This document shows positions 5,397 to 38,188 of a stretch of 43,382 nt of DNA, in pieces. This DNA comes from an uncultured archaeon (GTDB lineage Archaea > Iainarchaeota > Iainarchaeia > Iainarchaeales > GCA-2688035). Location of the stretch: the NCBI GenBank assembly GCA_964354805.1, contig CAYHBD010000043.1, positions 1 through 43,382 on the forward strand, in the 5' to 3' direction. Each line of letters begins with the position of its first letter. Position 1 is the first letter of the stretch. A program made the translations under genes and the position numbers. The notes beneath the pieces were generated by a model. The model was not told the origin of the DNA. It did no database searches and worked only from the letters and a program-made list of their open reading frames with translations.

Positions 5397-6086
5397 GTGA
5401 GCATCACAGAAAAGACTTACAAAGAGGCCAAGCGTCATAGCAAAGCTTGGATAACAGGCAAAAAAAAGATGCGACCGATTTCCGAGATGATCATGGCAAT
5501 ATTCAACAAAGACAGCAGGGTAAACATTGCTGATATTGGCGGCATAGGGGAATCCTATTCTTTTTTCAAAGAACTGCTTCCTTACGCTGCGATTTGGACA
5601 GTAAACCATGTTGAAGAGCATATGAAGGGGTGCAAGAACTGCGTTTTGGAAGACTTCTCAGAGAAGATAAGCCTGCCTTCTGGAAAGTTTGACTTGGTTT
5701 TTTTGGGGGACACTCTGGAACATATGGCGGATACCGATACCCTTGTCGAGGAAATCTGCAGGATAACAAAATGCGGCGGTTTTCTCATATTGACCACGCC
5801 AAATATGGCAAGTTGGGTAAACCGCTTTTCACTGTTGTTTGGGTTTGCACCGACAAACTATCACCCATCGGATATAAGGTATGGGGCAATAACAGGCGCT
5901 AACCGCGCATCCTACCACAAGTCGGTATTTACCTTGCCGGCTCTGAAGTCGTTCCTAAAACAGCATGGCTTTGAGACCCTGAAAACCAGGGGCTTCAGTT
6001 ATCATAACATGCCAATTTGCAGGCTTGCAAGCCTGCTGCCCAAAACATGGCAGGAAGGCATAATAGTGTTGTGCAAAAAAAAATAG
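5397..6086 (+). CDS. Class I SAM-dependent methyltransferase
   Basis: IADIGG, FDLVFLGDTLEH, GGFLILTTPN. Confidence 0.85.
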   Translation: MSITEKTYKEAKRHSKAWITGKKKMRPISEMIMAIFNKDSRVNIADIGGIGESYSFFKELLPYAAIWTVNHVEEHMKGCKNCVLEDFSEKISLPSGKFDLVFLGDTLEHMADTDTLVEEICRITKCGGFLILTTPNMASWVNRFSLLFGFAPTNYHPSDIRYGAITGANRASYHKSVFTLPALKSFLKQHGFETLKTRGFSYHNMPICRLASLLPKTWQEGIIVLCKKK

Positions 6087-7225: not shown

Positions 7226-7320
7226 CAACAGGCCAAGTAAATACTATTGGTAAAATTGTTTCTCTTCAATTGAATTTCAGCAAACCTTATAAAAACTTTC
7301 AAAGGGATTGTTTTAATACC

Positions 7321-8853
7321 ATGAACGCAAAAACACTGCTCATCCTTCCGCCGCGCACTGTGCAGATTACAGGGTCTTTGGAAGCGCACCAGCCGCCGCT
7401 TGGGCTGGCTTACCTTGCAGCAATGCTTGAAAGCAAGGGGCATAAAGTGAAAATAATTGACGCAGTAGCAGAGGGATTGAGCAATAAGGCAATGGTCAGC
7501 CAGCAATTTTTAAGGGTAGGCTTGAGTGATGAGGAGCTTGCCCGAAGAATCAAATCATATGCGCCTGATGTTGTAGGCATAAGCTGCATGTTCACAGCCT
7601 TTAAAGACGACGGCCTGAGGGTTGCGGCTATTGCAAAAGAAGCAATGCCTGATGCGCTTACTGTCCTTGGCGGAGCCCATGTTTCGGCAAACCCTGAGCA
7701 AACAGCCAGGGAACCAAACGCGGATATTGCAATATTCGGCGAAGGGGAATTGACATTGCTTGAAATCGTTGAACAGGTTGAAAAAGGCAAAAAGCCGGCC
7801 AAAATAGACGGCACTGCTGTCAAGAGCGGGAAAGGCGTTAAAAGAAACAAGCCCAGACAACTCCTGCCAAACCTTGACCTGCTGCCTTTTCCTGCAAGGC
7901 ATCTTTTGCCAATGGATATTTACTTCGGCCTGCAGAGGCAGAATTACGCTTTCAGCATGCGGTATCCCATAATAGAGCTTATCAGCAGCAGGGGATGCCC
8001 TGGCAAATGCGTTTTCTGCGCAGTACACGCAATCTGGGGGAGATGCTGGAGGCCAAGAAGCGCAGGCAATGTTGTCGATGAAATAGAATATTGCATGCAA
8101 AAATACGGAGCAAGGGAAGTAAATTTCACTGACGACAACATTTCACTATCAAAGAAAAGAATGATTGAAATCTGCAAAGAAATAATTGGCAGAAAGCTTG
8201 ACATTAAATGGCATACCCCGAACGGCATAGCAATCTGGACCCTTGACAAAGAAGTGCTGGCATGGATGCGCAAAAGCGGCTATTACAGGGCAAAGTTTGG
8301 CCTGGAAACAGGCAGCAGCAGAATGCAGAAATACATCGGAAAAAACATTGACCTTGCCTACGCAAAAGAAGTCATCAAAGAATGCAACAGGGCAGGGATT
8401 TGGACTGCTTCAAGTTTTATGATAGGTTTCCCTGATGAAACAGAGGAAGACATAAACCAAACAATTGAATTCGCAAATAGCACGCACCTCGACTTTGCCA
8501 GGTTTCTGATTGCACAGCCATATGCAGGCACGCAGTTATTCGACCAATTTGCGGAAAAAGGCCTGCTGCAGGGGAAACGCACAAAAGCAAGCAGCGCATT
8601 CCACACCTCTTACGATACAGCGCACCTCACGGCAAAACAGCTGAATGAAATAAGGATAAGCGCACACAAGCAATTTATGCGCAGCAGGGTCAAGCTGATG
8701 CTGAACCCAGGTTATTTCTTCACGGAATTCCTGCCAAAGGTTGCTTCAACCGAAGACTTCACGCATTTTGTGAGAAACGCGTTTACCCTGCTGAAAGGCA
8801 AAACCGCAGGGAAAAAGAAAACAGGCACAGTGCAGCAGGCAAGCGAAGACTGA
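7321..8853 (+). CDS. Cobalamin-binding radical SAM protein (paralog 1)
   Basis: PPLGLAYLAA, GGAH, GEGE, SRGCPGKCVFC, GLETG, FMIGFP, PYAGT. ATG 7321 preferred because a TTATAAAA box lies ~30 nt upstream. Confidence 0.92.
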   Translation: MNAKTLLILPPRTVQITGSLEAHQPPLGLAYLAAMLESKGHKVKIIDAVAEGLSNKAMVSQQFLRVGLSDEELARRIKSYAPDVVGISCMFTAFKDDGLRVAAIAKEAMPDALTVLGGAHVSANPEQTAREPNADIAIFGEGELTLLEIVEQVEKGKKPAKIDGTAVKSGKGVKRNKPRQLLPNLDLLPFPARHLLPMDIYFGLQRQNYAFSMRYPIIELISSRGCPGKCVFCAVHAIWGRCWRPRSAGNVVDEIEYCMQKYGAREVNFTDDNISLSKKRMIEICKEIIGRKLDIKWHTPNGIAIWTLDKEVLAWMRKSGYYRAKFGLETGSSRMQKYIGKNIDLAYAKEVIKECNRAGIWTASSFMIGFPDETEEDINQTIEFANSTHLDFARFLIAQPYAGTQLFDQFAEKGLLQGKRTKASSAFHTSYDTAHLTAKQLNEIRISAHKQFMRSRVKLMLNPGYFFTEFLPKVASTEDFTHFVRNAFTLLKGKTAGKKKTGTVQQASED

Positions 8854-8884
8854 TTTGCACTCTGGCCAATGGAGTACCATATTA

Positions 8885-10171
8885 TTAGTTCTTTTTTTTC
8901 CCGAGAACCGACAGCAAGTATTTTGCCCCGCTTGCCAGCAGTTTAGGGTTTTTTGCAATTCTTTTCAAAGCATAGCCTGGCCTGAGGTAAACGCTTTTGT
9001 ATGCTTTTTTGTACATGCTTTCAACCAATTCCCTGTTGAGGCAGCCGTACTCGTAGTATGCTTTGCCTGTGTAGCTTCCGTATTTGCTGAAATCCTTTAT
9101 CAGAAACTTCCCCTGTTTTTCAACCAAATCATATAACTGAGTGCCTGGGTAAGGCGTTGTAATAGTGAATTGGATTAAATCCAAATCCAGTTCCTTTGCG
9201 AAATCAATTGTTTCCTGCATTGTTTGCATGTCATCAAAAGGCAGTGCAATCATGAAGAAACCAATTGTTTCAATTCCAGCTTCCTTAGCCCAGCGCACTG
9301 CATCCCTAACCTGCTGCAAATTGATTCTTTTGCCTATTTTGTCCAGAACAGCCTGGTTTCCTGATTCAATGCCAAAGCTGAGCTGGTAGCAGCCAGCATT
9401 ATGCATCAGCCTAAGCAGCTGCGGGTCAACAGAATCAACCCTTACTCCATTCGGGCAATTCCACAAAATTTTAAAGCGCCTTTCAATCATTCCCTTGCAA
9501 ATTTCCTCAACTCTCTTCTTGTCAAGTGAAAAGTTGTCGTCAACAAAACCAATTTCCTTAACGCCATAATTTTCAATCAAATAGCCGATTTCGCTTAAAA
9601 CGTTTGCACTGCTTCTTTTCCTGTACGTGTTTCCAAAAACCCCTTTAAAGCAATAGATGCAGCTGAAAGGGCACCCCCTGCTTGACATAACAGAGAGATA
9701 GTTGTGCTTTCTTGTAACAGCCTTATACTCGTGCAAAGGCAGCCCGCTCCAATCAGGGAAAGGAAGAGTGTCCAGATCCTTGATCAGCTCGCTGTGCAGA
9801 ATTTTTTCCCTGCTTTCAAAAACACGCAAAATGCTATTTTCGCCCTCGCCAACAATCACCTTGTCAGCGTGCTGCAGGCATTCATTCGGAAAAATTGTTG
9901 CATGCGGACCCCCCATCACAACCTTTTTGCCTTGCCTTCTCAAATCGTCGCTCAGGGCAAAAGCCTTTGCAGCAGCAGGCGTGCAAACGCTCAGCCCAAC
10001 CCACTCGCTATCAATGCCTTCAATCTGCTGCCCTGCCTGCTGGTCAATCGGCTTCACAGCAATGCCCTGCCGCTTCAATACTGCTTGAAGGTAAGCGAGC
10101 CAAAGAGGCGGCGATGCATGCGCTGCGTAGACATCAGCAGCCAAATTTATTAAAGTGATTGAATCACGCAT
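8885..10171 (-). CDS. Cobalamin-binding radical SAM protein (paralog 2)
   Basis: PPLWLAYL, GGPHAT, GEGE, SRGCPFSCIYC, GIESG, PYPGT. Confidence 0.92.
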   Translation of the reverse strand: MRDSITLINLAADVYAAHASPPLWLAYLQAVLKRQGIAVKPIDQQAGQQIEGIDSEWVGLSVCTPAAAKAFALSDDLRRQGKKVVMGGPHATIFPNECLQHADKVIVGEGENSILRVFESREKILHSELIKDLDTLPFPDWSGLPLHEYKAVTRKHNYLSVMSSRGCPFSCIYCFKGVFGNTYRKRSSANVLSEIGYLIENYGVKEIGFVDDNFSLDKKRVEEICKGMIERRFKILWNCPNGVRVDSVDPQLLRLMHNAGCYQLSFGIESGNQAVLDKIGKRINLQQVRDAVRWAKEAGIETIGFFMIALPFDDMQTMQETIDFAKELDLDLIQFTITTPYPGTQLYDLVEKQGKFLIKDFSKYGSYTGKAYYEYGCLNRELVESMYKKAYKSVYLRPGYALKRIAKNPKLLASGAKYLLSVLGKKKN

Positions 10172-10240
10172 AGTTGAACCAACCGTTAATAAAAATAAAC
10201 AAAAACAAATTATTAAAAAAACATTAACAACAAAAAAAAA

Positions 10241-10312
10241 TTAATTTAAAAAAATCAACAAATTAATTAAAGTGATTGAGTTCGCCATAGTTGCACCAAT
10301 AAGTTAATAAAT
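10241..10312 (-). repeat. Decayed upstream duplicate of the 5' end and leader of the 8885..10171 gene
   Basis: The copy at 10288 reads MANSITLINLLIFLN* versus gene MRDSITLINL; leader ttattaacttattggtgcaact versus ttattaacggttggttcaact; offset 117 nt. Confidence 0.85.
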
Positions 10313-10376
10313 AATCAACAAGGTAAATTATTTTAATACCCTTAAATTAAAAGAACCTCTGGGTTGCTGATTTTTT

Positions 10377-11792
10377 ATGAACATTGTTTTCTTGAACCCT
10401 CCTTTCAAGGAGGGCTACAACAGGGAAGTCAGGTTCCAGGCTGTTTCACCCCAAAAAGCACTGCACCCGCCGATAATGCTTGCATATGCAGCTGCTGTCT
10501 GCAGGCAACAGGGCCACAAAGTCGACTTAATTGACGCGCCCGCACTCGAGCTTTCAGCAGAGCAGACAATTGAAAGGATTGTGGCAATTAAGCCAAGCTA
10601 TGCTGTTCTGCTTACATCAACAGCATCAGTGCAGAGCGATGCAGCGCTTGCAAAAAAAATAGCAGCCCTAACAGGCGCTAAAACAGTTGCAGTAGGAGTG
10701 CACGCTACGGCAGCTCCAGAAGACACCCTGCAGAAAGGATTTGACATAGTTGCAAGAGGCGAATATGATTACACAATAAGGGACTTGGCCAATGGAACGG
10801 AATTGCGCAAAGTGCTGGGCATTTCTTTCAAAAAAGGAAAAAAAATAATTCACAATGAGCCACGCCCTCTAATACGCAACCTTGATGAACTGCCTTTTCC
10901 AGCAAGGGAATTCCTGCCGAATGAAAAATATTACAGCGCATTGTACAAGAACCCATTCACTTTTGTCCTGGCAGGCAGGGGCTGCCCTAACCAGTGCATT
11001 TTCTGCGCCGGCCCGAAACTGATGTTTGGCAGGGCTTACAGGCTGAGGTCACCGCAAAACATTGTTGCAGAATTGAAGCATCTTAAGGAAAACTTTAATT
11101 TCAAAAGCGTCCTCTTCAATGACGACACTTTGAATGTAAACAAAAGCCATCTGCTTGAATTATGCAGCCTCATGGTAAAAGAAAAAATCGACTTGCCCTG
11201 GGCTGCCTACAGCAGGGTTGACACTGTTGACAGGGAGATAGCAGCAGCAATGAAAAAAGCAGGCTGCTTTTTGGTAAAGGTCGGCTTTGAGTCAGGCTGC
11301 AATGAATTGCTGCAGTCAATGAAAAAAGGCCCAAGGGCAACAACAGAACAGGCAATTAAATGCGCCCACTATTTCAAAGAGGCAGGCATCCAGGTGCATG
11401 GAACATTTGTTTTCGGAATGCCAGGCGAAACAGCGGAAACAATAAGAAAAACAATTGATTTCGCAAAAAAGCTTGACATTGATTTCGTTCAATTCAGCAT
11501 AGCCCAGCCTTATCCAGGCACAGAATTTTACAATTACCTTGAAAGCAACGGCATGCTATGCTTCAATGAATGGAGCGACTACCTTGATGCAGAGGGCAGA
11601 ATCACCCCTATATTTGAGTACCCGCATTTAAGCAAGAGCGAGATGTGCTACTGGATAAAGCAGGCATACAAAGAATACTATTTGAGGCCAAGCTATATCC
11701 TTAAAGCACTAAGGCAGAGGGCAACAAACTGGAATCTGCTCAAAACAAGCATTTCAAGCGCCTTCAATCTGATTCAGTACATGAGAAGCTGA
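10377..11792 (+). CDS. Cobalamin-binding radical SAM protein (paralog 3, HpnJ-like features)
   Basis: PPIMLAYAAA, GVHAT, RGEYD, GRGCPNQCIFC, GFESG, HGTFVFGMPGE, PYPGT. Confidence 0.92.
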   Translation: MNIVFLNPPFKEGYNREVRFQAVSPQKALHPPIMLAYAAAVCRQQGHKVDLIDAPALELSAEQTIERIVAIKPSYAVLLTSTASVQSDAALAKKIAALTGAKTVAVGVHATAAPEDTLQKGFDIVARGEYDYTIRDLANGTELRKVLGISFKKGKKIIHNEPRPLIRNLDELPFPAREFLPNEKYYSALYKNPFTFVLAGRGCPNQCIFCAGPKLMFGRAYRLRSPQNIVAELKHLKENFNFKSVLFNDDTLNVNKSHLLELCSLMVKEKIDLPWAAYSRVDTVDREIAAAMKKAGCFLVKVGFESGCNELLQSMKKGPRATTEQAIKCAHYFKEAGIQVHGTFVFGMPGETAETIRKTIDFAKKLDIDFVQFSIAQPYPGTEFYNYLESNGMLCFNEWSDYLDAEGRITPIFEYPHLSKSEMCYWIKQAYKEYYLRPSYILKALRQRATNWNLLKTSISSAFNLIQYMRS

Positions 11793-11806
11793 CAGCCGGC
11801 GATTGA

Positions 11807-11971
11807 ATGAAAATACTTTTCAAAACATCAGCCTTTTCAAAATCAAAAGAAGATGAACAAAATGAAAATCCTGTTCATAACATCAACTTTTCTGAAATCA
11901 AAAGAGGATGAACAAAAATGAAAATACTTTTCATAACCTCAACCTTCCTGAAATCAAAAGAGGATGAACAG
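11807..11971 (+). repeat. Three tandem copies (55-56 nt period) of the first 18 codons of the GT4 gene
   Basis: ATGs at 11807, 11862 and 11918 read MKILFKTSAFSKSKEDEQ, MKILFITSTFLKSKEDEQK* and MKILFITSTFLKSKEDEQL... Confidence 0.95.
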
Positions 11972-14575: not shown

Positions 14576-15250
14576 TCACTTCTTCCTGCACACAACAATG
14601 AAGTAGCTGCCGAAGAGGGTTAAAGGCGTTTTGCTCAGGCTGCGCTCAACAGCCCTTGTTATTTTGCCTATAACAGGCAGGCTGAAGAAAAACGAGCCAG
14701 GGGCAGCAATTCTGATTCCCTTAACTGCTTCAATTGAAAGCTGCCCTGGCAGAATGCGCTTGATTGAAGCAAGCGAATCATATCTTGTGAAAATTTTTTT
14801 CCTGATGAAAAAATTCGTCAGCCTCTTTATGCTCCTGCTGTTGTAGAATTCCAAAACAACAAAGCCATTGCTTTTTGCAAGCCTGGCTGCCTCATCCAGC
14901 GATTTTTCAATTTCTTTGATGTGGGCAAGAACCTTGAAAGAGCAGACAACATCAAAGCTGCCGCTTTTGAAGGGCAGGGCAACTGCATCCGCTCTTGCAA
15001 CAGAAAGCCCTTTTGCTGCCGCACTGTGCAGCATTTCCTGGGACAAATCAACTCCAACAGCGCTTTCCGCTTCTTTTCGTATTTGCTGCAATATCAATCC
15101 AGTGCCGCATCCGATCTCCAGAACACTCTTTCCCTTGGTAAAAGGTTTCACTGTTTCAATCTCCATTTCATTCACGAAGCCGAAGTAGCCGTGCAATCTC
15201 TTGCTGTCATATTCTTTGCTGAATTCATCATAGTAGTCTTCATTTTTCAT
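14576..15250 (-). CDS. Class I SAM-dependent methyltransferase (type 11)
   Basis: VLEIGCGTG, GVDLS, ADAVALPF..SFDVV. Confidence 0.9.
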   Translation of the reverse strand: MKNEDYYDEFSKEYDSKRLHGYFGFVNEMEIETVKPFTKGKSVLEIGCGTGLILQQIRKEAESAVGVDLSQEMLHSAAAKGLSVARADAVALPFKSGSFDVVCSFKVLAHIKEIEKSLDEAARLAKSNGFVVLEFYNSRSIKRLTNFFIRKKIFTRYDSLASIKRILPGQLSIEAVKGIRIAAPGSFFFSLPVIGKITRAVERSLSKTPLTLFGSYFIVVCRKK

Positions 15251-16337: not shown

Positions 16338-16352
16338 GGCAATCAGTGCATT

Positions 16353-16426
16353 TTACCTTCCGATTCCAAAACAAATTTTTTTAAAAAATCAAAAAAATGT
16401 TACCTTCCGATTCCGAAATAAATTAT
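16353..16426 (-). repeat. Tandem duplicate of the last codons and stop of the 16400..17689 gene
   Basis: Gene end att tat ttc gga atc gga agg taa; copy 47 nt downstream att tgt ttt gga atc gga agg taa. Confidence 0.85.
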
Positions 16427-17689
16427 GCCTTTTTCGATTATGCCATGCTTGTCCAGGCAGTTCCTTGCATCAACAATGCTTTTAACCCTGTTTTTCTTGA
16501 GGAAAGCAGGGGAAAGCTTTTCAACAAATGCTTTATGATGCGTTGCCAATACAATGCAGTCTGCTTTGCTGACGGCCTGCTTGAGGGATTGCACAGCACT
16601 CAAGCCAGGCAGGAAAGGGTCGAATGCAATCGGCTTAATGCCCCTCCTTTTTAGCAGCTGGATTATTTTTATTGCAGGGCTTTCCCTTGTGTCATCGACA
16701 TTCGGCTTGTACGCAAGGCCCAATACAACAACCCTTGCCTTAGCAGGCTTTAATCCAAGCCTGTGCAGGCTCTTTGCAGCAAGCGAAACAACATGCAATG
16801 GCATTGAATTGTTTATCTCCCTTGCAAGCTGCAAAAACCTGTGGGTAAAGCCAGCTTCTTTTGCCCTTGCAATCAAATAGTATGGGTCCTGCGCAATGCA
16901 GTGGCCTCCAACGCCTGGCCCAGGCCAGAAAGGCATGAAGCCAAAGGGCTTTGTTGTCGCTCCCTTAATCACTTCGCTTAAATCAACCCCCATTTTTTCA
17001 AAGCTTTTCGCAAGCTCGTTCACAAAAGCTATGTTTATGTCCCTGAAAGTGTTTTCAACAACCTTCACTGCCTCGGCTTCCTCAGGCTTGCTGAGCGCAA
17101 CTATTTTCGCTTTAATTATTTTCCTGTAAAAGGAAAGCCCTTTCCTTTCGCCCTCCTTGCTCAAGGCAGAAAAAACCCTTGATATGTTCTGCAAACGCCA
17201 TAGCTTGTTGCCTGGGTCAATCCTTTCAGGGCAGTGGGCCAAAAAGAAGTCTCGCTCTGCTTTCAGACCGCTGCTTTCAATTATAGGCTTGACTATGTGC
17301 CTCAGCGTTCCAGGGTAAACAGTTGACTCAATAACAATAAGCGGCTTTTTTTCAGGCTGCAAATGCATGGCAATTGCTTTGCACGCGCTCCTCACAGGCT
17401 TTAAATCAGGCTTGTTTCCCTTTGCTGGAGTGGGAACGCAGACAACTATTATGCCGCAGCCCTGCATTGCGATTTTCGGATTGCTGCTCACCGCAATTTT
17501 TTTGTACACGCTTTTCAGATTTTTTTCCAGCATCTCATCCTTAATCGGGCTTTTTCCATTGCGAATCAAAGAAACCTTTTTTTTATTCAAATCAAAGCCC
17601 TTTACATTGAAGCCCTTTGCAGCGCAAAGGCATGCAAGAGGCAGGCCTACATAGCCCAAGCCAACAATGCAGACAGTATCTTTCACCAT
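16400..17689 (-). CDS. UDP-N-acetylhexosamine dehydrogenase (WbpA/WecC family)
   Basis: GLGYVGLP, CVPTP, ESTVYPG, CPERIDPG, KVVENTFRDINIAFVNE, TKPFGF, GPGVGGHCI, DTRESP. Confidence 0.93.
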   Translation of the reverse strand: MVKDTVCIVGLGYVGLPLACLCAAKGFNVKGFDLNKKKVSLIRNGKSPIKDEMLEKNLKSVYKKIAVSSNPKIAMQGCGIIVVCVPTPAKGNKPDLKPVRSACKAIAMHLQPEKKPLIVIESTVYPGTLRHIVKPIIESSGLKAERDFFLAHCPERIDPGNKLWRLQNISRVFSALSKEGERKGLSFYRKIIKAKIVALSKPEEAEAVKVVENTFRDINIAFVNELAKSFEKMGVDLSEVIKGATTKPFGFMPFWPGPGVGGHCIAQDPYYLIARAKEAGFTHRFLQLAREINNSMPLHVVSLAAKSLHRLGLKPAKARVVVLGLAYKPNVDDTRESPAIKIIQLLKRRGIKPIAFDPFLPGLSAVQSLKQAVSKADCIVLATHHKAFVEKLSPAFLKKNRVKSIVDARNCLDKHGIIEKGIIYFGIGR

Positions 17690-18076: not shown

Positions 18077-19489
18077 TCAGCTACGCATTATTGTAAGAAA
18101 GCCCTTTGCCAGGATTTTAATGTCCTCAATTCCCCTGATTGACAGAACCCTCTGCAAAAGGTAACTCGGCCTTAAATAGAATTCCCCGTAAGCCTTTTTA
18201 TGCAATTCTATTAACTCCGGCCCACTCAATCCTTTTGGAACATACAATGGCTTTTCCAAAAAATTGAAGTCTGGAACTATTTCATCCAGCCAATAAGATG
18301 GCCTGCTCAGCTCGCCGTTTTTCACTATCCGGCTGTAGGCATCAGTTCCAGGCCAAGGCATGAAAAAAGTGAATGTCGCAATAGTTGGATTCAACTGCTT
18401 TGCAAAACTGATTGTTTGCAGTATGTCCTGCCGTGTTTCACCAGGCAACCCAACAATGAAATAGCCCCTAATGCCAATGCCGACTTTTTTTGTCAAAGCA
18501 AATGTTTCCAAAACCTTTTCCTTTGAAAAACCCTTTCTAATTGAATCAAGCACTGGCTGGCTGCCGCTTTCAACGCCGTAAGCAATATACTGGCATCCTG
18601 CCTCTTTCAGGCTTTGCAGCATCGGCCTGTCAACGCAGTCAACCCTTGCCTCGCAGCTAAACGTTAGGTCCCAATGCTGCTCCTTAATCAATTCACAAAT
18701 CTTTATCACCCTTTTCTTGTCAACAGTGAAGTTGTCATCCCAGATGCCGATGTCCCTTGCCTTATACTTTTCAACCAACAACTGTATTTCCCCAATCACT
18801 CTTTCAGGCGAATGCGCCCTGAATGACCTGCCAAAGATATTCTTATCGCAGAAAGTGCAGTTAAAAGGGCAGCCCCTGCTTGTGATAAGGCAGTGCGAGG
18901 GCATCCTCTTGGACCTGGCCCCGCTGCCTGTGTACAAGTGCATAGGCAACAAGTGCCTTGCCGGCAAAGGCAGCTCATCAATGTTCTTGATGAAAGGCCT
19001 CTCTCCGGTGAAAACAGGCTTTTTGTTCTTTTTGAAATAAACCCCCTTGACTTTTGCAATGCTTTTTCCTTTCTCGGCAGCGCCGACCAGTTCGGTTATA
19101 GTCCTCTCGCCTTCCCCGCACACAACAAAGTCAACACTGCCCTGCCCTATTACCTCAAGCGGGATTGCCGTCGCGTGGGGCCCGCCGAAAATAATCGTTG
19201 CACCGCTTGCAGCTTTTATGGCGTCAACCGCTTCAAAAGCCCTTTTCACAAAAGAGGTGTAAGCGCTCACTCCGACAAAATCAAAATGCTGCGCACCTGC
19301 AGAAATTCTTTCTATGCTGGTTTCCTCAGCAATGCCGTCAATGATGCGCACATTGTGGCCAGCCTGCTCAAGAGCAGCAGCGATGTACGCAAGGCCCAAA
19401 GGCTCGACCTTGCTTTGGGCAACAGCCGCGCCTCTCCTGTAAAGCTCTGCCTTTGAAAGGGGCGGGTTTATGAGCAAAACACTTGCCAA
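18077..19489 (-). CDS. Cobalamin-binding radical SAM protein (paralog 4)
   Basis: EPLGLAYIAA, GGPHAT, GEGE, SRGCPFNCTFC, GVESG, YFIVGLPGE, PWPGT. Confidence 0.92.
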   Translation of the reverse strand: MASVLLINPPLSKAELYRRGAAVAQSKVEPLGLAYIAAALEQAGHNVRIIDGIAEETSIERISAGAQHFDFVGVSAYTSFVKRAFEAVDAIKAASGATIIFGGPHATAIPLEVIGQGSVDFVVCGEGERTITELVGAAEKGKSIAKVKGVYFKKNKKPVFTGERPFIKNIDELPLPARHLLPMHLYTGSGARSKRMPSHCLITSRGCPFNCTFCDKNIFGRSFRAHSPERVIGEIQLLVEKYKARDIGIWDDNFTVDKKRVIKICELIKEQHWDLTFSCEARVDCVDRPMLQSLKEAGCQYIAYGVESGSQPVLDSIRKGFSKEKVLETFALTKKVGIGIRGYFIVGLPGETRQDILQTISFAKQLNPTIATFTFFMPWPGTDAYSRIVKNGELSRPSYWLDEIVPDFNFLEKPLYVPKGLSGPELIELHKKAYGEFYLRPSYLLQRVLSIRGIEDIKILAKGFLTIMRS

Positions 19490-23775: not shown

Positions 23776-23943
23776 TTACATCCTGCTTTTTTCCAAAGCC
23801 AAGCCAACACCATCAACAATGCACAGCAATGCAATCCCCAAAAGCCAAGCCAACAATCTCAACAATGCACAGCAATCCCAATCCCTCAAACCAAGCACTC
23901 ACCCAAAGCCAACCCAACAATTTCAACAATGCACAGCAATTCC
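23776..23943 (-). repeat. Three tandem copies of the 3' end of the DegT gene
   Basis: LLCIVEIVGLALGECLV* (gene), LLCIVEIVGLAFGDC, LLCIVDGVGLALEKSRM*. Confidence 0.9.
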
Positions 23944-25019
23944 TTTTTCCTCATTTGAGGAAACAGCGGCAGTGTCACAATCCTCTTGCTTAATTCCTCC
24001 GTAACAGCAAGGCCTTTTGCATTGCAGCCAAGTGCAGTATAAAAGGTCTGCAGGTGAATCGGCGGATCAAAGTGAACAGACGCGCCAATGCCCTTGCTTT
24101 GCAGGAACGCCATGAATTTTGTTCTGTCAATTTCTTTTGCTAATTTTATTGTGTACATCTGGAAAACATGCCTGCATTTTTTTTCCTCAACAGGCAATTC
24201 AATAGCAGGGAATTTTGCAAGCTGTTTGCTTAGGAAGGCAGCGTTCTTGCGCCTCATTTCATTCATTCTGCCGATCTTTTTCAATTGGACAACACCAATC
24301 GCAGCCAAAACATCGCACATTCTGAAATTGTAGCCTGCATAAACAGCATCCCTAAACCAGGGCAGTGCTGTCAGGCCCCTTTCCTTTGCAGTTGATTCAA
24401 TTCCATGCGCCTTCAATGCCTTGCATTTTTTATACAATTTTTCGTCGTTAGTTGTAATCATTCCGCCCTCGCCTGTTGTGATGTTTTTGGTCGGATAAAA
24501 CGAAAAACAGCCTGTCGCAAAGCTGCCTGTCTTCTTTCCATCAAACAGGGCGCCAATTGCTTCAGCGCTGTCCTCAATCACAGCCAAATTGTTTTCGCCC
24601 GCAATCTGCATTATTTCGCCCATTCTGCAGCTTTGCCCTGCGAAATGCACTGGCATTATTGCAACCGTTTTTTCTGAAATCTTTTCCCTGATTTTCTCTG
24701 GGTTAATATTGCAGCTGCGCCACTCAACATCGGCAAAAACAGGGGTGCAGCCGGCATTAACTATTGCGTTTGCAGTTGCACTCATGCTGAAGCTTGGGCA
24801 GATAATTTCCCCGCGCAGGGCAGCTGCCTGGATTGCAATCTGCAAAGCCGAAGCGCAACTGTTCAAAGAGGTTGCATATCTTGTTCCAATGTATTCAGCG
24901 AATGACTCCTCAAACTGCTTTGTTTTCGGGCCGTGGGCTAGCCAGCCGCTTTTCAGCACATCTGCAACAGCGGCAAGTTCCTCTTTGCCCAGCATTGGCT
25001 TGCACAATGGAATCTGCAT
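23886..25019 (-). CDS. DegT/DnrJ/EryC1/StrS PLP-dependent sugar aminotransferase
   Basis: MPVHFAG, IEDSAEA, FSFYPTKNITTGEGG, GYNFRM, TLPLFP. Confidence 0.95.
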   Translation of the reverse strand: MQIPLCKPMLGKEELAAVADVLKSGWLAHGPKTKQFEESFAEYIGTRYATSLNSCASALQIAIQAAALRGEIICPSFSMSATANAIVNAGCTPVFADVEWRSCNINPEKIREKISEKTVAIMPVHFAGQSCRMGEIMQIAGENNLAVIEDSAEAIGALFDGKKTGSFATGCFSFYPTKNITTGEGGMITTNDEKLYKKCKALKAHGIESTAKERGLTALPWFRDAVYAGYNFRMCDVLAAIGVVQLKKIGRMNEMRRKNAAFLSKQLAKFPAIELPVEEKKCRHVFQMYTIKLAKEIDRTKFMAFLQSKGIGASVHFDPPIHLQTFYTALGCNAKGLAVTEELSKRIVTLPLFPQMRKKELLCIVEIVGLALGECLV

Positions 25020-25057: not shown

Positions 25058-26032
25058 TTACTCTATCGCTTTCCCCTCTTTAATGCCCTTAATGTAATTT
25101 GGAATCCCTTCTTCAATACTATAACGCGGCTTGAAGCCAAGCAGTTTTCTTGCTTTGCTGTTGTCCAAAGCGCCCCTGCTCGGCACCCTGTCACCGCTTT
25201 CTTTTTCCAGCAGCTTTGCGCCGGGAATATTCTTTGCAACAATGGAAGCAAAGTCTTTTATTGTTCTTCCATCGCCTCTTGTGATGTTGAAAACCTGGTT
25301 TGCCGCTTTTTCGCTTTTTGCAGCAGCTACAATTCCTGCCGCTGTGTCGCTTACGTAAGTGAAATCAAGCTTGTTTTTCCCGCCATCATACAGCAGCAAC
25401 GGCTTTCCACCCAAAGCGTTTTCAATGAAAACCTTTGAAACCCTGTCATAGCTGTCCCCGGGGCCATAGACAGCGCTTGGCCTGACAATAGTCCACTGCA
25501 ATCCGAATTTGCTGCCATAAGCTTTTGTAAGGATTTCGCAGCTCAGCTTTGTTCCGCCATAGACATCAATCGGGTTCGTCTGGTGCTTTTCATCAGCAGG
25601 CTCATACTGGAAGTCGCCGTAGACAAAGCTGCTTGAAGCAAAAACAAGCCTTTTCACCGAATCTGTTCTCCTCACAGCCTCAAGGACATTAATTGTCCCA
25701 TTCAGGTTTATGTCAATTGCGTCCTCCGGGAACTGATTGCTTTTCCTTGCATCAGGGATTGCCGCCAAGTGAATCACAATCTCTGGCTTTGCCTCCTGCA
25801 GCGCCCTTATTACCTCCAACTTGTACCTGACGTCGCCCCTGATGACATTCAGTTTCTCCTTCAAGTCATTGAAGCGCAGCGCCAATTGCTTTTCATAATC
25901 ATATTTTAATCTGTCACTATAGTTTACAAAGCTGTCGAAAACAAATAATTCGTCTTCCCCTTCCTTCAACAGATTTCTGCAGCAATAGCTTCCAATGAAT
26001 CCAGCTCCGCCGGTAATCAAAATCTTAGCCAC
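25058..26032 (-). CDS. NAD-dependent epimerase/dehydratase (extended SDR)
   Basis: [40 protein letters not shown] 26032 follows AGGGTG; the track start is 26041. Confidence 0.92.
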   Translation of the reverse strand: MAKILITGGAGFIGSYCCRNLLKEGEDELFVFDSFVNYSDRLKYDYEKQLALRFNDLKEKLNVIRGDVRYKLEVIRALQEAKPEIVIHLAAIPDARKSNQFPEDAIDINLNGTINVLEAVRRTDSVKRLVFASSSFVYGDFQYEPADEKHQTNPIDVYGGTKLSCEILTKAYGSKFGLQWTIVRPSAVYGPGDSYDRVSKVFIENALGGKPLLLYDGGKNKLDFTYVSDTAAGIVAAAKSEKAANQVFNITRGDGRTIKDFASIVAKNIPGAKLLEKESGDRVPSRGALDNSKARKLLGFKPRYSIEEGIPNYIKGIKEGKAIE

Positions 26033-26122
26033 AACCAACACCCTTCATTACACACCAACAATCAAAATCTTAGCCACAACCAACACCTTTCTTTACACAA
26101 CAACAATCAAAATCTTAGCCAT
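26015..26122 (-). repeat. Three tandem 45-nt-period copies of the epimerase 5' end
   Basis: Starts at 26122 (MAKILIVVV*), 26077 (MAKILIVGV*) and 26032 (MAKILITGG...). Confidence 0.93.
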
Positions 26123-37245: not shown

Positions 37246-37367
37246 TTCAGGTCAGATTAATAGGTTATTTAATTCAATTTAAATGAATTGGTGCAGCGGT
37301 TGAACAGTTCCCAAGCAGCACTAACTAATAATATAAATTTTTACTAACCCAATTTACTTTGGTTTCA

Positions 37368-37414
37368 ATGGACCTGGGAATAAAGAAAGCATTCATTCTG
37401 GCAGGTTGGTCTGA
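37368..37414 (+). repeat. Upstream duplicate (47 nt) of the nucleotidyltransferase 5' end
   Basis: MDLGIKKAFILAG versus gene MGIGISKAFILAG. Confidence 0.88.
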
Positions 37415-38188
37415 ATGGGCATTGGAATAAGCAAGGCATTCATTTTGGCTGGAGGCTTGGGCACTCGGTTAAGGCCTGTTACTTATGAGCTTAGCAAGCT
37501 TATGCTGCCAGTGCAGGGAAAGCCAATACTGCAGTGGAACATTGAGCTTGTTAAAAGATTCGGCATCAGTGACATAACTCTTGCAGTAGGCTTCAAGCAC
37601 GAGCAAATCCAGCAATTCTTTGGAAGCGGGGAAAAGCTTGGCGTAAAAATTCACTACAACATTGAGAAAGAATACATGGACACAGCAGGTGCATTGCGTA
37701 TTGCGGAACAGCATTTAAAGGGAGAAAAAAAATTCATTGGAATGAACGGCGATGAATTGAAGGACATTGACTTCAGCGCAATGAGCGCAGTGCATGAAAA
37801 AAACAATGCGATTGCAACAATTGCATTGGCCAGTGTTCCGTACAGGCACGGCGGCGGCGTAGTGAAAACAGAAGGAAACATTGTTACTGAATTCAGCGAA
37901 AAGCCTGCTGACGAGCAGCCTGGAAACAAGCTGATTCACGCAGGCGCATACATCCTCTCGCCGGAAATTTTTGGATTCATTGAAGGGGGCAAAAAAGTCA
38001 GCATTGAAAAGGAAGTATTCCCGCTGCTCGCTGAGAAAGGCAGGCTGTGCGGAGTTGACATGGCAGGCAGGCAGTTCCTGCAGACAGACAACTTTGAAAG
38101 ATACGAAAAAGCAATTTTCGAATGGAAGGGATTTTCAGCAAACGGCAAAAACAAAAAGATTGAACAAATCCAAAAGAGCGAAGAATAA
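37415..38188 (+). CDS. Sugar-1-phosphate nucleotidyltransferase (Man-1-P guanylyltransferase-like)
   Basis: LAGGLGTRLRPVT, DTAGAL, NGD, FSEKP, AGAYIL, SIEKEVFP. Confidence 0.9.
   Translation: MGIGISKAFILAGGLGTRLRPVTYELSKLMLPVQGKPILQWNIELVKRFGISDITLAVGFKHEQIQQFFGSGEKLGVKIHYNIEKEYMDTAGALRIAEQHLKGEKKFIGMNGDELKDIDFSAMSAVHEKNNAIATIALASVPYRHGGGVVKTEGNIVTEFSEKPADEQPGNKLIHAGAYILSPEIFGFIEGGKKVSIEKEVFPLLAEKGRLCGVDMAGRQFLQTDNFERYEKAIFEWKGFSANGKNKKIEQIQKSEE

Follow-up and report, generated by a model that had tools for sequence, protein, structure and literature searches.

Genomic Context of the GT4 Gene Start

The window, by which we mean the whole 43,382-nt stretch of DNA analyzed, is an entire 43-kb contig of a metagenome-assembled genome (1.38 Mb, 49 contigs, 88.5% complete), and its relatives carry the name Candidatus Diapherotrites archaeon (DPANN). 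A gene for a B12-binding radical SAM enzyme is followed here by a gene for a GT4 glycosyltransferase on the same strand, the two probably sharing an operon, and the start of the GT4 gene is present three times in tandem (Table 1). The surroundings form a surface-glycan cluster with further radical SAM enzymes, methyltransferases, a flippase-like protein, a second glycosyltransferase and a UDP-glucose dehydrogenase. Four genes for B12-binding radical SAM paralogues were found within 12 kb of the glycan cluster (window 7270-11792 and 18077-19489). The methyltransferases are separate genes in the window (5397-6086 and 14576-15250); in the 76% GT4 orthologue, P0003 (L003, G022:C105), which has 634 residues, a methyltransferase domain is fused at the C-terminus.

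Table 1. Features at the junction of the radical SAM and GT4 genes, in window coordinates.
Feature	Position	Strand	Remarks
B12-binding radical SAM enzyme gene, 471 aa	10377..11792	+	Pfam B12-binding and Radical_SAM
Spacer before copy 1, 14 nt	11793..11806	+	Relatives have 10-17 nt from the radical SAM stop to the GT4 ATG
Copy 1, 55 nt, apparently an old decayed relic of the gene start	11807..11861	+	I6K, T9A, L11S, GAG>GAA
Copy 2, 56 nt, apparently a young relic of the gene start	11862..11917	+	Matches the allele working in sister strain L034
GAGG, Shine-Dalgarno-like motif at -14 of the working ATG	11904..11907	+	Supplied by codons 15-16 of copy 2
Copy 3, first 54 nt of the working GT4 gene	11918-11971	+	ORF start
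Working GT4 glycosyltransferase gene, 415 aa	11918..13165	+	Pfam Glycos_transf_1 (1e-44) and Glyco_transf_4

An exact look-up of the GT4 protein returned no record, and a search for short N-terminal GT4 fragments found none. The N-termini of GT4 orthologues at 87%, 76% and 63% identity align with it from residue 1, and since they begin with the same residues at position 1, we take 11918 to be the true start of the gene. In the 76% relative (L003) the GT4 ATG follows the radical SAM stop by 10 nt without a repeat, and in the 87% relative (the P0002 contig) the two genes are 17 nt apart, a gap from which a single copy was judged. With intergenic distances this short in the relatives, copy 1 would occupy the ancestral start position and the repeat would be specific to the lineage of the window.

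Structure of the Triplicated Start

TRF describes the array at 11806-11970 as a repeat with a period of 56 nt, 3.0 copies and 87% matches. The copies are 10-17% diverged from one another, and that all three lie on one molecule is read from the assembly. An earlier note, made from the letters of the window, had claimed that copies 2 and 3 encode the same 18 residues with six synonymous differences and no replacements, and the comparison bears this out: both give MKILFITSTFLKSKEDEQ, and exactly six differences separate them, every one synonymous and at a third codon position (copy 2/copy 3: ATC/ATA, CTG/CTT, ACA/ACC, ACT/ACC, TTT/TTC and CAA/CAG). The last of these coincides with the duplication junction and does not count as a substitution. 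Copy 1 encodes MKILFKTSAFSKSKEDEQ, with three replacements plus GAA in place of GAG, and differs at nine sites from each of copy 2, copy 3 and the sister strain described below. Residue T9 is invariant across the orthologues and position 6 is always hydrophobic; because copy 1 is so diverged and is altered at both of these conserved positions, it is best read as an old decayed relic, in agreement with the suggestion in the note that it is the older copy.

Two short open reading frames precede the gene. That of copy 1 has 34 codons (11807-11911); it crosses copy 2 in another reading frame, and its stop codon at 11909-11911 falls 6 nt short of the working ATG. The frame of copy 2 covers 11862-11921 and has 19 codons, or 22 if it begins at the ATG at 11853, and the TGA that ends it (11919-21) overlaps the ATG of GT4 (11918-20). 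Both this ATGA (11918-21) and a Shine-Dalgarno-like motif, GAGG at 11904-07, had been pointed out before and are indeed present. The overlap is not independent evidence of design, since a unit length of 3n+2 and a gene beginning with ATGA force it to occur. Before long ORFs across the genome, GAGG has a peak at -14 to -11 and GGTG a peak at -12 to -9; the ATG of copy 1, at the ancestral start position, has no GAGG-like motif. Two other functions for the array were considered and rejected: nothing supports a programmed -1 slip at CAAAAATGA that would join copy 2 to the gene, and a phase-variable contingency repeat does not fit an array in which an ATG comes with each copy, the intact frame is always begun by the last one, and the copies have diverged to the degree given above.

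A Single-Copy Start in a Sister Strain

Searching with the C-terminus of the upstream radical SAM protein identified a partial protein, 97% identical, encoded by a JGI metagenome contig of 980 nt (L034), the sole sister-strain sequence, which ends 111 nt into the GT4 gene. Apart from the protein of L034, the protein cluster of P0038 has a single member, which is that of the window itself. Across the final 771 nt of the radical SAM gene the two strains are 96.6% identical, with 26 differences. In L034 the radical SAM stop is followed by a 16-nt spacer and one GT4 start only, which reads ATG AAA ATC CTG TTC ATA ACA TCA ACC TTT ... CAG.

This working start matches copy 2 at 52/54 bases and copy 3 at 50/54. 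The two sites at which it departs from copy 2 are site 27 (ACT in copy 2, ACC in L034) and the junction site 54 (CAA/CAG), leaving ACT as the one private substitution of copy 2. Against copy 3 it differs at gene positions 9, 12, 21 and 30 only, and beyond position 30 there is no difference between L034 and the window through the next 24 nt and a further 58 nt past the unit. L034 shares with copy 2 four of the six states that separate copy 2 from copy 3. A search for strain variants with a gene start like copy 2 was among the checks proposed in the earlier note, and the match found in L034 supports its view that copy 2 is the relic of a diverged allele. As far as sequence comparison can tell, the spare copy 2 is a match to an allele that is in use as the working start elsewhere, and we regard the comparison with L034 as new direct evidence for reading the differences at this locus as allelic. 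Derivation of copy 2 from a paralogue elsewhere in the genome was also considered and rejected, GT4 itself being the only match there. The 76% orthologue was tried as a codon outgroup; its third positions are saturated and uninformative.

The spacer of L034 ends in AAA before the ATG and reproduces the junction GAAC/AAAATG exactly, so the duplicated unit can be placed at AAAATG...GAAC. If the L034 arrangement is taken to precede the duplication, microhomology at the borders amounts to 1 nt (the unit, then A). A pair of 5-nt ATGAA motifs serving as microhomology arms would give a period of 46 nt, which differs from the period observed. Five of the 14 aligned bases of the window spacer differ from the L034 spacer, in addition to a 2-nt indel, and copy 1 together with the spacer is far more diverged from L034 than are the flanks. 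Since L034 has no copy 1, though copy 1 looks older than the split between the strains, a loss or an import in one of the lineages has to be assumed.

Differences between the strains are also patchy within the radical SAM gene. Of its 26 differences from L034, 13 fall at 11510-11559 and 8 at 11285-11378, while the last 233 nt hold only 1; a cluster of 13 differences in one 50-nt window was equalled in 0/20000 permutations. Counted by codon, 18 of the strain differences in this gene are synonymous and 7 non-synonymous. Such patchiness points to recombination, as it would be the signature of short imports from diverged relatives.

Tandem Repeats and Spare Gene Ends across the Genome

Scanning the whole genome (G000) yielded 117 short tandem repeats, whose periods are most often 42-66 nt. 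Of these, 51 lie inside genes, where 94 were expected, and 66 at gene borders and in spacers, where about 23 were expected, an enrichment of about threefold. Many of the repeats are clean duplications across a start codon, and those outside the window include cases at genes resembling PurC, AroE, CoaD, Rpo7 and a P-type ATPase. In two relatives, with 200 kb sampled from each, repeats are fewer and the border bias is the same; one of these relatives is a single-contig genome.

The window itself holds several more of these repeats. A 47-nt tandem duplication at 37359-37449 (+) crosses the start of a sugar nucleotidyltransferase-like gene at 37415-38188 (MGIGISKAFILAGGLGTRLRP), and the relic at 37368 (MDLGIKKAFILAG) has four silent differences in the conserved KAFILAG, with replacements only in the first six codons. 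The pair at 37368/37415 looks like another case of the allele-type pattern. At 26015-26121 (-) three 45-nt copies cross the start of an epimerase-like gene at 25058-26041 (AKILITGGAGF). Its relics read MAKILIVVV* and VAKILIVGV*, and 15 coding bases are identical in 3/3 copies, with flanks that differ. Spare 3′ ends were found at 16348-16427 and 23795-23896, with periods of 47 and 46, respectively; the first adjoins the UDP-glucose dehydrogenase gene (16400-17689, -) and the second lies downstream of a gene at 23886-25019 (-).

Comparing relic with gene at 33 border loci gave 38 silent and 46 replacing codon differences (dN/dS about 0.3). Without the GT4 locus there are 33 synonymous and 46 non-synonymous differences, and most pairs are ordinary mixtures of the two. 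The silent excess is uneven: three loci reach a per-locus P <= 0.004, the GT4 start among them, and finding three such loci among 16 has P = 3e-5. The other two are spare gene tails after a stop codon, each retaining a stop codon of its own, one at C9:108355-108909 with 6 synonymous differences and 1 D/E, and one at C9:147846-149171 with 7 synonymous and 0 non-synonymous. Individual spare tails, for example those at C9:108302-108414, C9:147788-147903 and C2:7160-7247, have 7/7 differences at third positions, 7 silent and 0 replacing, and 3 and 0, respectively. Because spare tails are untranslatable in that frame, the silent pattern cannot in general be put down to selection on a translated peptide, and copies of other alleles can, on this sequence evidence, account for silent-only tails.

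Source of the Silent Differences

Whether the all-silent pattern at the GT4 start could arise by chance was calculated under a null in which copy 2 is a neutral relic and copy 3 a constrained gene, so that each difference is synonymous with a probability of about 0.33-0.35. Under this null, 6/6 synonymous differences have P ~0.001-0.002, and 5/5 without the junction site have P ~0.004-0.005. The test of the synonymous fraction that the earlier note had called for thus gives a silent excess beyond chance (P ~0.001-0.005). The note took this as divergence built up under coding constraint, which is correct insofar as the constraint is real; it appears to have acted on working alleles and not on copy 2. 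Four of the six differences are shared with the working start of L034, one lies on the junction, and one is private, and for this reason we read the all-silent pattern as being mostly the differences between two working alleles, not selection on copy 2. That the private change in copy 2 is silent is unremarkable, as it is a single change (chance P ~0.2). Gene conversion between the copies was rejected as a source of the silent bias by reasoning, because it erases silent and non-silent differences alike and leaves their ratio unchanged.

If the array had arisen by plain duplication in place followed only by point mutation, with no exchange of alleles, the all-silent pattern would be luck. In favour of this explanation, the genome has many tandem duplications at gene borders, and its relic/gene pairs are mostly mixed (the 33 synonymous and 46 non-synonymous differences given above). 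We nonetheless consider it very unlikely, given the probability of the silent pattern at the GT4 locus (0.001-0.005) and that of three silent-only loci in one genome (3e-5), together with the four specific states common to copy 2 and L034. The distribution of changes is also the reverse of what it predicts. Taking the L034 state as ancestral, copy 3 has 4 private changes and copy 2 has 1, whereas a neutral copy 2 would be expected to hold about 83% of the changes (P = 0.004 for the observed split). The working copy would thus have changed four times within 22 nt and the free relic once, in a region whose flanks contain 1 difference in 315 nt. ATA and CTT are also found in copy 1, so exchange within the array could explain two of the four changes in copy 3.

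A similarly improbable explanation in our assessment is that the ORF of copy 2, and perhaps that of copy 1 as well, is a translated leader whose peptide is under purifying selection and which is translationally coupled through ATGA to the synthesis of GT4, as the earlier note had offered as its second reading. Copy 2 has 0 replacements in 18 codons, neither upstream ORF stops more than 7 nt from the working ATG, and GAGG stands at -14 of that ATG, all of which would be consistent with a leader. The comparison does not support it, as the upstream ORFs are absent from L034, the 87% relative and the 76% relative, and the overlap follows from the 3n+2 unit length. With four of the six silent differences common to a working allele, all that is left for peptide selection is the one private change, and the silent-only pattern recurs in the spare tails behind stop codons. 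Additionally, the own ATG of copy 2 is preceded by GAAG and not GAGG, a search of the locus against Rfam gave no match above threshold, and the RNA fold of the locus is not unusual (z = -1.48).

The least likely of these alternatives is an assembly chimera, in which two strains with fewer copies were threaded into one contig and copies 2 and 3 sit on separate molecules; the source is a metagenome-assembled genome in 49 contigs and a strain with a copy-2-like start does exist (L034), but both junctions (GAAGATGAACAAA joined to ATGAAAATCC, and GAGGATGAACAAAA joined to ATGAAAATAC) are unique and must occur in reads, and the private base of copy 2 (ACT) is absent from L034, which together make a chimera unlikely. 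Furthermore, identical stretches between the end of copy 1 and the L034 spacer are <=11 nt, too short for a false join at usual k, border repeats lie at true gene ends, a placement that selection would favour and assembly errors would not, and border-biased repeats also occur in the relative that was assembled as a single contig.

Proposed History and Significance

Considering the evidence together, it is likely that the three-copy start is a duplication scar and not a device, and that the differences between copies 2 and 3 are mostly a record of allelic exchange. In this history a unit of about 55 nt, consisting of the last 3 spacer bases and the first 52 bases of GT4, would have been duplicated head to tail twice in the lineage of the window. 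Each duplication would be harmless because the last copy retains an intact ATG before the whole gene, and as a side effect the last copy would gain GAGG at -14 from the copy preceding it. In the order of events that we infer, copy 1 is old and decayed and copy 2 young with one private substitution. Two working versions of the start may circulate in a recombining population. Copy 2 would keep the version that is the sole start in L034, and the first 30 bases of copy 3 would be the other version, most likely written over the original by a short recombination patch of the type seen in the neighbouring gene (~50 nt). Alternatively, the array could have been built through unequal exchange between two alleles. 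Either allele may be the import.

The repeat array is probably neutral and probably not a working part. It seems to be an ordinary relic of duplication and strain-to-strain exchange that would be useful as a marker of gene flow. One consequence of the duplication could nevertheless be functional, as it gives the working start a Shine-Dalgarno-like GAGG that is absent at the ancestral position; this motif could alter GT4 output and with it the amount of a surface-glycan enzyme. Translation begun on either relic ORF would end within 7 nt of the working ATG, and ribosomes could resume at 11918. For the study of small ORFs, the locus illustrates that an all-silent pattern does not prove that an ORF is translated, the pattern here being one of allele history. 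Spare gene tips with the codons of another strain indicate exchange of short DNA in an uncultured DPANN population; they mark the ends of exchanges and can be counted from assemblies alone.

Both the duplications and the allele patches measure about 50 nt, and we raise, as a speculation that we think improbable, that both result from a single, as yet undescribed way in which small DPANN archaea exchange DNA. As part of the same speculation, short single strands from relatives, possibly Okazaki-sized, would be built in at replication, and a piece out of register at a gene border would leave behind the tip of the donor gene. If this mode of exchange were true, gene-tip relics would provide a tally of gene flow among archaea that have not been cultured.

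Comparison with Known Systems

The array has some likeness to stop-start coupled leader peptides, in that the stops of its two short ORFs coincide with the working ATG or fall no more than 7 nt from it. Unlike in those systems, the ORFs here are unconserved and have neither regulatory codons nor a terminator/antiterminator structure, and the overlap appears as a by-product of unit length.

The resemblance to microhomology-mediated tandem duplication (MTD; Wei et al., PNAS 2026, PMC13167724) is closer. As in MTD, a segment that is otherwise single-copy has been duplicated head to tail and then reached three copies, is polymorphic between strains, and belongs to a class of repeats that is depleted within genes and persists at their borders. 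L034, L003 and, judging by its 17-nt gap, the 87% relative each have one copy of the segment, and the depletion within genes and the tolerance at borders are both seen in this genome (51 against 94 expected, and 66 against about 23). The differences from MTD are that the border microhomology here is only 1 nt, with L034 as the pre-duplication state, and that the copies represent different alleles, an outcome that MTD by itself does not give.

Short patches can also be compared with SPDIR (bioRxiv 10.1101/2023.11.22.568220), a short-patch recombination that yields clustered polymorphisms, which was defined in Acinetobacter and in which ectopic single strands anneal at microhomologies. The likeness lies in the dense patches of ~20-50 nt in which the two strains differ while the DNA around them is identical, one such patch being the first 30 nt of the GT4 gene. 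The present case differs in that it concerns an archaeon, is known from sequence alone, and has patches that look like allelic replacement at the homologous place.

Displaced gene ends that arise by homology-facilitated illegitimate recombination are known from the orphan 3′ regions of rhs and T6SS effector loci (PMC5361080, citing de Vries & Wackernagel 2002 and Prudhomme et al. 2002). Relative to those orphan ends, the spare end here is short (55 nt), comes from the 5′ end, encodes the same residues and brings no new cargo, and its comparison with another strain draws on one 980-nt sister contig. Independent signs of exchange are present at the locus, both in the 13 differences within 50 nt of the radical SAM gene and in the diverged spacer and copy 1. 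In the same way as the orphan 3′ ends described there, the GT4 array appears to place a spare gene end from another allele beside the working gene, where it would record exchange between diverged relatives.
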